A stretch of 6,334 nucleotides of DNA from a virus. Its lineage: Duplodnaviria; Heunggongvirae; Uroviricota; Caudoviricetes. Both the position numbers and the translations under genes were made by a program. The notes under the pieces were generated by a model. It was not told where the DNA came from, made no database searches, and was given only the letters and a program-made list of their open reading frames with translations. Location of the stretch: IMG/VR virus record IMGVR_UViG_2734482594_000010, one strand, 5' to 3'. Shown one piece after another: positions 4,289 through 5,695 of this stretch (within the stretch, counting starts at the first letter, position 1; every line of letters begins with the position of its first letter).

Positions 4289-4486
4289 ATGCTAAAACAG
4301 CAGGATATGACAGAAACCGCCAGAGTGGTGTTTAATGAATTAAGCGTTACCGAACCGGCGACAGTCGGGGAGATAGCGCAGAATACTTACCTTTCACGCG
4401 AACGCTGCCAGTTAATACTGACCCAGCTGGTTATGGCGGGTCTGGCAGACTATCAGTTCGGTTGTTACAGACGCCTTCCGCAGTGA
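4289..4486 (+). CDS. Small putative DNA-binding protein (65 aa) with helix-turn-helix / winged-helix-like segment (PATVGEIAQNTYLSRERCQLILTQLVMAGLADYQ)
   Basis: ORF track entry. SD-like AAGGAAAAG upstream of ATG 4289. Stop codon lies inside the following terminator hairpin. Confidence 0.5.
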   Translation: MLKQQDMTETARVVFNELSVTEPATVGEIAQNTYLSRERCQLILTQLVMAGLADYQFGCYRRLPQ

Positions 4487-4496
4487 AGGCTTTTTT
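4473..4496 (+). terminator. Rho-independent terminator (stem GCCTTC/GAAGGC, 6-nt loop, T6) overlapping the stop of the 4289..4486 ORF
   Basis: Perfect 6-bp stem 4473..4478 / 4485..4490 followed by TTTTTT 4491..4496. Confidence 0.6.
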
Positions 4497-4513
4497 ATTT
4501 GTGGTAAATGGGC

Positions 4514-4544
4514 GGCTGGTGGGTGTTAGGGGCACCCACCAGCC
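4514..4544. promoter_or_regulatory. Perfect 12-bp inverted repeat GGCTGGTGGGTG-(7 nt)-CACCCACCAGCC in the leader of the methyltransferase gene; candidate operator or RNA stem-loop
   Basis: Arms 4514..4525 and 4533..4544 are exact reverse complements. No T-run follows, so not a classical terminator. Confidence 0.4.
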
Positions 4545-4636
4545 ATCTGCTCATGCGTTGGGTTCACAAGCAAACCTCAGGCCCACTGCTTTGCGCAAAA
4601 GCAGAATGAGCCTATCAGAGACAGGCTTAATGATCC

Positions 4637-5695
4637 ATGCTTAATACTGTAAAAATATCCAGTTGTGAGTTAATCAACGCCGACTGCCTGGAATTTATCC
4701 GGTCGTTACCCGAAAATTCTGTTGACCTGATAGTCACGGACCCGCCGTACTTTAAAGTGAAGCCTGAGGGCTGGGATAACCAGTGGAAGGGCGACGATGA
4801 TTACCTGAAGTGGCTGGACCAGTGTCTGGCGCAGTTCTGGCGGGTGCTGAAACCTGCCGGAAGTCTTTACCTGTTCTGTGGTCATCGCCTGGCATCTGAT
4901 ATCGAAATCATGATGCGTGAACGCTTCAGTGTGCTGAACCATATTATCTGGGCGAAGCCGTCCGGACGCTGGAACGGATGCAACAAGGAAAGCCTGCGGG
5001 CGTATTTCCCCGCCACAGAGCGCATTCTGTTCGCGGAACATTATCAGGGGCCGTATCGTCCGAAAGATGCCGGGTATGCGGCGAAGGGCAGTGCACTGAA
5101 ACAGCATGTGATGGCCCCGCTGATTTCTTACTTTCGTGATGCGCGAGCTGCCCTGGGGATAACGGCAAAACAGATTGCAGATGCCACAGGAAAGAAAAAC
5201 ATGGTGTCGCACTGGTTCAGTGCCGGTCAGTGGCAGTTGCCGAATGAAAGCGATTATCTGAAATTACAGGCGCTGTTTGCCCGGGTGGCAGAAGAGAAGC
5301 ATCGGCGTGGTGAACTGGAAAAGCTCCACCACCAGCTGGTGGATACGTATACCTCACTGAACCGGCAGTATGCGGAGCTGCTGAGTGAATATAAACATCT
5401 GCGGCGGTATTTTGGCGTGACGGTGCAGGTGCCGTATACCGATGTGTGGACGCATAAACCGGTGCAGTTCTATCCCGGGAAACATCCGTGCGAAAAACCG
5501 GCAGAAATGCTGCAGCAGATAATCAGCGCTAGCAGTCGTCCGGGTGACCTGATTGCAGATTTTTTCATGGGGTTGGGTTCGACAGTGAAAGCGGCACTGG
5601 CGCTCGGGCGTCGTGCAATTGGCGTTGAGCTGGAGACTGAACGTTTTGAGCAGACGGTTCGGGAAGTACAGGATTTAGTCAGCCAGAACGGATGA
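4637..5695 (+). CDS. DNA N6-adenine methyltransferase, beta-class (motif IV DPPY before motif I FxGxG), 352 aa; orphan (no restriction endonuclease gene in window)
   Basis: Catalytic motif DLIVTDPPYF near the N-terminus and AdoMet-binding motif DFFMGLGST near the C-terminus. About 270-aa insert between them includes an HTH-like stretch (LGITAKQIADATGKK). Confidence 0.9.
   Translation: MLNTVKISSCELINADCLEFIRSLPENSVDLIVTDPPYFKVKPEGWDNQWKGDDDYLKWLDQCLAQFWRVLKPAGSLYLFCGHRLASDIEIMMRERFSVLNHIIWAKPSGRWNGCNKESLRAYFPATERILFAEHYQGPYRPKDAGYAAKGSALKQHVMAPLISYFRDARAALGITAKQIADATGKKNMVSHWFSAGQWQLPNESDYLKLQALFARVAEEKHRRGELEKLHHQLVDTYTSLNRQYAELLSEYKHLRRYFGVTVQVPYTDVWTHKPVQFYPGKHPCEKPAEMLQQIISASSRPGDLIADFFMGLGSTVKAALALGRRAIGVELETERFEQTVREVQDLVSQNG

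Follow-up and report, generated by a model that had tools for sequence, protein, structure and literature searches.

The M.EcoGII-type methyltransferase cassette is found at positions 4289 to 5695 of a 6,334-nucleotide stretch of viral DNA (Caudoviricetes; IMG/VR record IMGVR_UViG_2734482594_000010), here called the window, which represents the nin/late-regulatory part of a lambdoid prophage. The cassette comprises, all on the plus strand, a gene for a winged-helix protein of 65 amino acids (aa), a terminator-like hairpin, a structured leader RNA of approximately 145 nucleotides, and a gene for an adenine methyltransferase of 352 aa. We consider it rather probable that these parts form a late-operon cassette for anti-restriction hypermethylation that is under layered control, exerted by Q antitermination, a terminator, an RNA switch, and possibly LexA. 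The leader is a widely conserved structured RNA, apparently undescribed so far, and it probably helps to keep a toxic enzyme silent until the lytic phase. The methyltransferase itself is already known, whereas its control region looks like an undescribed variant of a guarded DNA-hypermodification theme.

In the proposed mechanism, only Q-modified RNA polymerase would be expected to pass the terminator tR' and a second terminator at 4473 to 4496 and so enter the methyltransferase gene. The leader would fold into a three-way junction (stems P1, P2, and P3), with the 5' tail tied to the P3 loop by a pseudoknot and with hairpin P4 following, and a competing fold (P1alt plus P4ext) would re-pair the same conserved strands. 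No Shine-Dalgarno sequence is present at the methyltransferase start codon, so the balance of the two folds probably sets translation of the enzyme. The 65-aa protein might modulate this translation step as a functional counterpart of the Com protein of phage Mu, which is our best guess, and it might act on the RNA, on DNA, or on the enzyme. Codons 3 to 8 of the methyltransferase gene contain a near-consensus LexA box, which may add dependence on the SOS response. Once made, the enzyme would hypermethylate replicating phage DNA, and progeny would thereby resist many restriction systems.

The methyltransferase gene (4637 to 5695, plus strand) encodes a protein that matches PF01555 (N6_N4_Mtase) at 144.1 bits (cut-off 26.7; E=7.9e-42). 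The sequence TDPPY at residues 34 to 38 is followed by a target-recognition domain and then by the S-adenosylmethionine-binding sequence FMGLG at residues 310 to 314. This match and the two motifs agree with a preliminary description, made from the letters of the window, of an orphan beta-class N6-adenine methyltransferase with the order DPPY...FxGxG. That description also mentioned a long insert containing a helix-turn-helix (HTH). The insert is the predicted target-recognition domain: a weak HTH_3 match (E=0.036) covers residues 167 to 195, and the corresponding domain of M.EcoGII was modelled as a four-helix bundle that contains an HTH (PMC11551740).

The protein is identical at 324 of 349 residues (93%) to M.EcoGII as printed in the supplement of PMC11551740, a machine-read text with obvious reading errors, and the true identity is probably slightly higher. 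Its assignment from sequence as an orthologue of M.EcoGII/M.EcoGI is well supported; the identity extends over the full length, the beta-class motif order is shared, and like them it is prophage-borne and an orphan without an endonuclease. M.EcoGII is a 349-aa beta-class enzyme encoded on a prophage of E. coli O104:H4. Its adenine methylation is independent of sequence context, acts on both DNA and RNA, and shields DNA from many restriction enzymes. Constitutive expression slows growth, and the lysogen does not express the gene (Murray et al. 2018, PMC5778455). The anti-restriction role suggested for the window's enzyme thus agrees with the published view of its 93%-identical relative. By analogy with the orthologue, the enzyme probably has no target motif, and the specific motif that the preliminary description proposed to look for is not to be expected. 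The same paper notes a very similar gene in phage 1720a-02, which is our hit H2, with 94.7% nucleotide identity to this locus. The leader, the winged-helix gene, and the LexA-like box are absent from the description given there.

The window's protein differs from M.EcoGII/M.EcoGI in its length (352 versus 349 aa), in its C-terminal tail, and in having Gly197 and a Ser313Leu substitution in motif I. Residue 313 (codon at 5573 to 5575) is leucine within FMGLGS, so the conserved motif I serine (FxGSG) is missing. Serine occupies this position in all 11 aligned homologues from other genera, in all 116 representative homologues with a readable motif, and in 290 of the 297 copies of the gene that the retrieved loci contain. 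Leu313 was seen only in the window's own lineage (L074-L076, L240). Gly197 is also rare, as 118 of 120 homologues have serine there. Together with an IS600 element downstream, Ser313Leu suggests a decaying prophage and possibly an impaired enzyme, and sequence-independent methylation is doubtful for this copy because of the substitution. The variant offers a natural test of the motif I serine.

Two further comparisons concern other enzymes. The plasmid enzyme M.EcoGIX was considered and rejected, because it is plasmid-borne and its context is unrelated. Hin1523, Hia5, and Nma1821, encoded where Mu-like prophages otherwise carry mom, also provide phage-borne, sequence-non-specific adenine methylation as a broad anti-restriction measure (Drozdz et al. 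2012, PMC3299994); unlike the window's protein, they are alpha-class enzymes with the opposite motif order, and they belong to another phage type.

The leader RNA (4494 to 4639, plus strand) takes up most of the 150 nucleotides that separate the 65-aa open reading frame (ORF) from the methyltransferase gene, and its 3' end coincides with the start codon. Stem P2 (4514-4525 with 4533-4544) is a perfect 12-bp inverted repeat with a 7-nucleotide spacer, located as the preliminary description stated. The GCGC-centred palindrome described next to it is likewise present at 4586 to 4604 and forms P4 (4586-4592 with 4598-4604), but it is slightly asymmetric, with 7-bp arms around GCGCA, and it ends 32 nucleotides before the ATG rather than about 33. 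P1 is a long-range helix (TGGGC 4509-4513 with GCCCA 4581-4585) that encloses P2 and P3, and P3 pairs 4548-4551 with 4569-4572. A pseudoknot joins UGUGR of the 5' tail (4500-4504) to UCACA in the P3 loop (4564-4568). Long unpaired stretches of the leader are nearly invariant. P1, the pseudoknot, and the second fold discussed below do not figure in the preliminary description, nor do the LexA-like box and Ser313Leu.

P1, P2, and P3 were predicted by RNAalifold from 48 loci aligned with MAFFT on sequence alone, and one locus (L009) carries a double change that preserves P1. In the sequence-only MAFFT alignment, 93.4% of the cells in P1 to P4 are paired, and sliding the partners lowers this share to 44% or less. 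Both sides are changed in 10 pairs, versus 4.0 in shuffles. Covariation in the pseudoknot, detected by a column-pair scan and by explicit counts, consists of a G-C to A-U exchange in 12 sequences. Both palindromes are conserved in homologous loci, which speaks against a chance origin. Their arms vary freely in sequence between clades and nonetheless stay complementary, a pattern that points to stems of a folded nucleic acid and not to sequence-specific protein sites.

Conservation and two partly independent checks also speak for the leader and its fold. Compared with the leaders of 14 other enterobacterial loci, that of the window is 72 to 83% identical (62% for one more-divergent locus), whereas third codon positions in the flanking genes are 41 to 57% identical. 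The leader is thus far better conserved than synonymous sites, which indicates selection on it. The fold predicted for the window's leader has a z-score of -4.18 relative to shuffled sequences. In a chimera test, which depends little on alignment, native P2 halves average -17.1 kcal/mol, versus -10.0 for chimeras between loci. This test gives clear support for P2 and weak support for P3 and P4, for which the differences are slight.

A covariance model (R1) built from the 48-locus alignment scores 130.9 bits on the window's leader and also finds matches in Zooshikella and Gilliamella. Among 81 viral contigs whose methyltransferases are 45 to 67% identical to the Zooshikella enzyme, 53 contain a match. 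The resulting collection amounts to 91 loci, and every match is on the coding strand, with its end at the first ORF of the methyltransferase unit or a short way ahead of it. In the 91-sequence alignment (A3), which was fitted to the model's structure and so inflates pairing counts, 91.8% of cells are paired, versus 28 to 42% when slid. Changes on both sides affect 25 of 29 pairs and 280 cells, versus 67 +/- 7 cells in shuffles, and none of 500 shuffles attains the observed count.

The leader was compared with known RNAs. No family of Rfam 15 reaches its threshold on the 261 nucleotides from 4440 to 4700 with permissive filters, and the best match there, to P26, lies on the minus strand and scores 24.2 bits (gathering score 36). 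A search of the leader with ARAGORN gave neither a tRNA nor a tmRNA, although P2 resembles an acceptor/T-arm minihelix by eye. The D12-methyl RNA motif, a candidate cis-regulatory RNA of D12-class adenine methyltransferase genes and presumably an Rfam family, is likewise conserved and structured and precedes adenine methyltransferase genes associated with phages. It differs in methyltransferase class and in host range, and no Rfam model reaches threshold on the leader. We found no description of the leader in the literature; four unnamed RNA candidates upstream of N6-adenine methyltransferases (PMC10690425) could not be compared. Two minor candidates were rejected. A leader ORF of 33 codons from the ATG at 4508 is not conserved and meets early stops in other loci, and an outer P3 pair (51:76) is paired in 61% of sequences, with G82 as a better partner.

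The LexA-box-like palindrome TACTGTAAAAATATCCAGTT (4645 to 4664, without strand) occupies codons 3 to 8 of the methyltransferase gene. The window contains CTGT-W8-NCAG a single time, and 200 shuffled versions do not contain it. With a weight matrix made from an informal set of 21 E. coli LexA sites, the palindrome scores 23.7 bits, compared with 12.9 to 27.0 (median 20.6) for the known sites and 15.1 for the best site in the 200 shuffled windows. The core CTG-N10-CAG is found at the same position in 58 of the 91 loci, divergent clades included. Its spacer stays AT-rich although the encoded residues vary, the threonine codon is ACT in the box-containing loci that were inspected, and the N-terminal extension is missing from homologues that have no box. 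Prophage and colicin genes under LexA repression similarly carry a near-consensus CTGT-N8-(A/C)CAG box on a gene meant for SOS or lytic induction. In contrast to theirs, the present box lies in a coding region without a recognisable promoter over it; no convincing promoter was found there, by eye on both strands or by a scan. The box and the small gene are found independently of each other across loci, which led us to reject the box as an operator of the 65-aa protein. The box may be an added SOS element, and a role as a roadblock or as an RNA hairpin is possible.

The hairpin reading takes 4645 to 4664 as an RNA structure that follows the start codon and belongs to the expression platform of the leader, and not as a LexA operator. 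It is possible, although we lean against it. The sequence can pair ACUGU with ACAGU, it is transcribed beside a structured leader with no overlapping promoter, and two loci have the symmetric variant CTGG...CCAG. However, CTGG-N8-CCAG is itself the form of the ruvAB LexA box. Also, many loci, including the window, have CCAG on the right and an unchanged CTGT on the left, a combination that weakens the hairpin and is allowed in known LexA boxes. The AT-rich spacer, which persists while the encoded amino acids change, and a score above the median for known LexA sites also speak for the operator.

The leader can adopt a second fold. P1alt (AUGGGC 4508-4513 with GCUCAU 4549-4554) is pairable in 96% of cells, and P4ext (GGCCCAC 4580-4586 with GUGAGCC 4606-4612) shows an A-U to G-C exchange in 10 sequences. 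The fold with P1alt and P4ext is the thermodynamic optimum predicted for the window, and it buries the start codon. The two folds are mutually exclusive and each is individually supported, so that, as far as sequence can indicate, the leader has the look of a switch. In its most specific form, which we offer tentatively, the proposal is that the leader represents a new class of RNA switch, either a riboswitch or protein-responsive, that gates translation; the 65-aa protein would be a partner acting in trans, and the LexA box an intragenic SOS check. If the leader is a switch, it would constitute a regulatory RNA class that is new and rich in natural sequences, and it might provide a tightly off cassette for expression of toxic enzymes.

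Alternatively, the leader might be a constitutive element, such as a determinant of processing or stability or a damper of translation, that neither switches nor has a trans-acting partner, and the alternative fold would be a by-product of conservation. We regard this as rather unlikely. The fold is strongly conserved, yet it is only weakly linked to the ribosome-binding site; the strands common to P1 and P1alt hardly vary, and little true covariation separates the two helices. Also, low constitutive translation of a toxic enzyme already makes sense when the Shine-Dalgarno sequence is missing. However, P4ext has undergone compensatory changes from A-U to G-C in 10 sequences, a change that P1 tolerates as a wobble pair, and the positions of P1alt vary only so as to keep pairing. 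The nearly invariant long unpaired stretches suggest recognition of a ligand or protein, which is more in keeping with a switch.

The sequence TGTGRAAAT in the 5' part of the leader might instead be an extended -10 promoter that produces its own transcript, either a Q-independent methyltransferase mRNA or a small RNA. In enterobacterial loci, TGTGAAAAT or TGTGGAAAT is conserved directly after the terminator, and the decamer TGTGGTAAAT occurs both at 4092 to 4101, in the putative PR' -10 region, and at 4500 to 4509, at the 5' end of the leader. This repeat may be a coincidence or a second extended -10-like element. However, the same bases covary with the P3 loop (the G-C to A-U exchange noted above), and P1, just downstream, pairs with 4581-4585; both must therefore be transcribed. 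Divergent clades have GAAGTG or TAAGTG, which are unlike a -10 element, and a promoter scan gave no match at the 5' part of the leader. A promoter here is therefore improbable.

The 65-aa protein (gene at 4289 to 4486, plus strand, with an AGGA Shine-Dalgarno sequence 8 to 9 nucleotides upstream) belongs to phrog_331, a PHROG family without a known function. Its homologues form 334 clusters from Escherichia, Shigella, Salmonella, Klebsiella, Citrobacter, and Buttiauxella, which are usually named 'TrmB family transcriptional regulator'. Its Pfam matches (TrmB, MarR, DprA_WH) are weak and below cut-off, and the Pfam search gave no HTH_3 (XRE-type) match. Compared with other genera, nonsynonymous divergence (dN) is 0.08 to 0.25 and synonymous sites are saturated; the ratio to synonymous divergence (dN/dS) is approximately 0.1 where it can be computed. 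By this measure, the ORF is a genuine gene under purifying selection. An AlphaFold2 model (predicted local distance difference test score 88) has the helix-helix-helix-strand-strand arrangement of a winged helix. A Foldseek search of the PDB was tried for a functional clue and gave none: it returned generic winged helices, with no E-value below 1e-3, among them O-methyltransferase dimerisation domains, MarR/OhrR, IclR, MotA, and SelB.

The gene is linked to the methyltransferase gene. Approximately 50 loci in a collection with one genome per species are of the enterobacterial type, defined by a methyltransferase at least 70% identical, and in approximately 32 of them the 65-aa gene lies directly upstream at a fixed distance. 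Unrelated genes take its place in approximately 16. All eight places that encode one abundant variant of the protein adjoin the methyltransferase gene or its remnant disrupted by an insertion sequence (IS). An iterative profile search, whose shuffled control gave zero matches, extends the family to small proteins encoded upstream of far more divergent methyltransferases (L316, L320, L321, L348, L351). The protein thus appears to be a conserved but dispensable partner in the cassette. The model, the selection, and the linkage bear out the preliminary identification of a winged-helix-like ORF, and the winged-helix model without an HTH_3 match fits its remark that the HTH does not resemble classic C proteins. 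The ORF also ends in its own terminator-like element, as had been proposed: a hairpin at 4473 to 4490, overlapping the stop codon, is followed by a T-run (4473 to 4496, plus strand). This element marks the 5' boundary of the leader and methyltransferase cassette. A hairpin of variable sequence with a U-run also precedes the leader where the upstream genes are unrelated.

The preliminary description likened this arrangement to controller-protein regulation, in which the 65-aa HTH protein would bind 4514 to 4544 and 4586 to 4604 as DNA operators and set the timing of methyltransferase transcription, in the manner of the C proteins of restriction-modification systems. A small HTH gene is indeed directly upstream of the methyltransferase gene with palindromes between them, and the pair of genes is conserved. 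However, this reading is very unlikely. The palindromes are kept in loci without the 65-aa gene, and their arms differ widely between clades while remaining complementary (the signature of a folded nucleic acid). They also join a larger structure that includes a long-range helix and a pseudoknot. The protein has the form of a winged helix and is no C protein of the XRE type. The palindromes are situated 3' of the small gene, with none noted upstream of it, and no endonuclease gene is present.

Several observations weigh against the layered control that we favour. Every mechanistic step beyond the identity of the genes is one that we infer from sequence. The 65-aa gene is missing from approximately one third of leader-bearing enterobacterial loci and the leader is present with or without it, so this gene is not essential for leader function. 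When RNAalifold is applied to a sequence-only alignment of the divergent set, it recovers P1 alone, because MAFFT misaligns the variable hairpins. The helices contain 72 G.U cells versus 111 A.C cells, so wobble pairs give no clear strand assignment and do not prove a fold of the sense strand; the sense RNA is taken as the folded strand because of its fixed position at the 5' end of the gene, the pseudoknot, and the long-range topology. Helices toward the ribosome-binding region (GTGAGC:GCTTAC and ATCAG:CTGAT) are 56 to 86% paired and were rejected as poorly supported, which leaves the expression platform undefined. The LexA-like box lies inside the ORF, 8 nucleotides after the ATG, and not over an identifiable promoter, and Ser313Leu may render the window's enzyme inactive. 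The machine-read M.EcoGII comparison sequence, the informal set of sites behind the LexA matrix, and the fit of the 91-sequence alignment to the model count on the same side.

A known parallel might be com-mom of phage Mu. Mu Com, a small protein with a zinc finger, attaches to a stem-loop of the mom mRNA and turns on the translation of a toxic DNA-modification enzyme (PMC6483171), and promiscuous adenine methyltransferases take the place of mom in some Mu-like prophages (PMC3299994). In outline, both systems have a small upstream gene, a structured mRNA start, a toxic anti-restriction enzyme that modifies DNA, and late expression. They differ in that the small protein of the window is a winged helix and not a zinc ribbon, the leader has a junction and pseudoknot and is not a single hairpin, and Mom is no methyltransferase. 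The cassette thus appears to resemble com-mom more than it resembles C-protein control, and the resemblance would be one of function, not of membership. C-protein systems share with the cassette the small HTH gene that adjoins a methyltransferase gene and the nearby palindromes. They differ in having an endonuclease and an XRE-type HTH, and the present palindromes lie 3' of the small gene, covary, and are independent of it.

No PF10122 (Com-family) protein is encoded in the window; such proteins occur only in distant loci of the methyltransferase family. Where the enzyme is approximately 40% identical (L056-L058, L072; approximately 2814-3041), Com-family zinc-ribbon ORFs that match PF10122 at 31.5 to 48 bits (cut-off 22.9) lie directly upstream. 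In one viral clade (L277-L283, L287, L293, L300, L351; approximately 817-963), a Com-like ORF of 36 to 41 aa lies between the RNA motif and the methyltransferase gene, and a winged-helix gene is found further upstream (L277-L300, L351). Com-like genes at this position support post-transcriptional control of the cassette and do not show that the winged-helix protein acts as Com does.

As a reagent, M.EcoGII has wide use in chromatin footprinting, MadID, and RNA labelling, and it is carried by thousands of prophages of E. coli, Shigella, Salmonella, and Klebsiella, many phages encoding Shiga toxin (Stx) 2 included. Tolerance of a gene for an enzyme that methylates all adenines has so far been explained only by the view that "prophage genes are off". 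The leader, the partner protein, and the LexA-like box are concrete, testable parts through which the methyltransferase might be controlled. They suggest that broad-spectrum enzymes for hypermodification of phage DNA have repeatedly come under post-transcriptional guards, for which Mu com-mom is the precedent.

The genes around the cassette are those of a lambdoid late region. The Q antiterminator gene (3243 to 4064, plus strand) encodes 273 aa and matches PF03589 (Antiterm, E=1.6e-53), and its counterpart in a homologous E. coli locus is annotated 'antitermination protein'. A sequence reading of TTGATT (4070 to 4075) and TAAATT (4092 to 4097), separated by 16 nucleotides and with TG at 4089 to 4090, suggests that 4070 to 4097 on the plus strand is the putative late promoter PR'. 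This assignment is inferred from the position right after Q, and these hexamers score under the threshold of a promoter scan. A tR'-like intrinsic terminator (4145 to 4170, plus strand) consists of a hairpin at 4145 to 4164 and a T-run. Gene order and homologous loci agree with the earlier placement of the cassette after PR'/tR' and before the tRNAs, at the site where Stx phages carry stx. Neither the ORFs of the window nor the annotated homologous loci include a restriction endonuclease gene, as the preliminary description had said of the window. Further upstream are rusA (2866 to 3246), a DUF968 gene (1807 to 2865), and a hok/sok type I toxin-antitoxin locus (approximately 904 to 1229), with an Rfam sok match of 112 bits at 904 to 1079 and a Hok/Gef ORF at 1017 to 1229. 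Just 3' of hok, an isrK-like Rfam match at 1238 to 1319 is weak (25.7 bits; gathering score 50).

Downstream of the methyltransferase gene, a promoter-like site (TTGAAG, 17 nucleotides, TATTAT; 5698 to 5726, plus strand) precedes the tRNA genes and is the sole sigma-70-like match in a scan of 3900 to 5900. It agrees with a transcription start mapped between tR' and stx2AB in the O157 strain Sakai, which apparently drives the tRNAs (PMC7547250). The first gene of the phage tRNA cluster (5736 to 5811, plus strand; ARAGORN) has a CAT anticodon and corresponds to a tRNA-Ile in the annotation of homologous loci. A run of 41 N at 5856 to 5896 hides most of the second tRNA (from approximately 5822; tRNA-Arg in homologous loci) and the start of the next. 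ARAGORN reports a single tRNA because this run masks those that follow. An Rfam match to the small RNA family STnc100 (5867 to 6049; 69.8 bits, gathering score 47) lies just 3' of the tRNA cluster and partly overlaps the N-run, and a weak second copy is found at 6088 to 6276 (21.8 bits). The end of the IS600 element (IS3 family), within 6222 to 6334, runs from approximately 6229 (TGAGGTGTACTGGCAATAGCGGACAC) to the end of the window. It sits 3' of the tRNA cluster, where related phages carry stx or other cargo, and suggests a disrupted prophage that may come from Shigella.

The locus matches 254 phage records, mostly of Stx2 phages. In phiP27, the small gene, the methyltransferase gene, and tRNAs precede stx2e, and homologous loci carry tRNA-Ile, tRNA-Arg, and tRNA-Arg downstream. 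In E. coli prophages without stx, the module lies 5' of lysis (holin) genes, sometimes with tRNAs between. None of the complete E. coli genomes in the collection holds the entire window above approximately 97% identity. Three IMG/VR contigs encode an identical methyltransferase, and the closest named protein is that of Shigella boydii, at 98% identity. Some loci (L431-L438; 366-2755, minus strand) carry NA37 family and KAP NTPase cargo between Q and the module of small gene and methyltransferase. Opposite-strand cargo at this place is seen in many E. coli prophages, which indicates that the site between Q and the module is a hotspot for accessory genes. In one viral contig (L170, approximately 2218-2300), a deletion has joined the leader, after GAGCCTATC, directly to the 3' portion of the methyltransferase gene, an instance of cassette decay.

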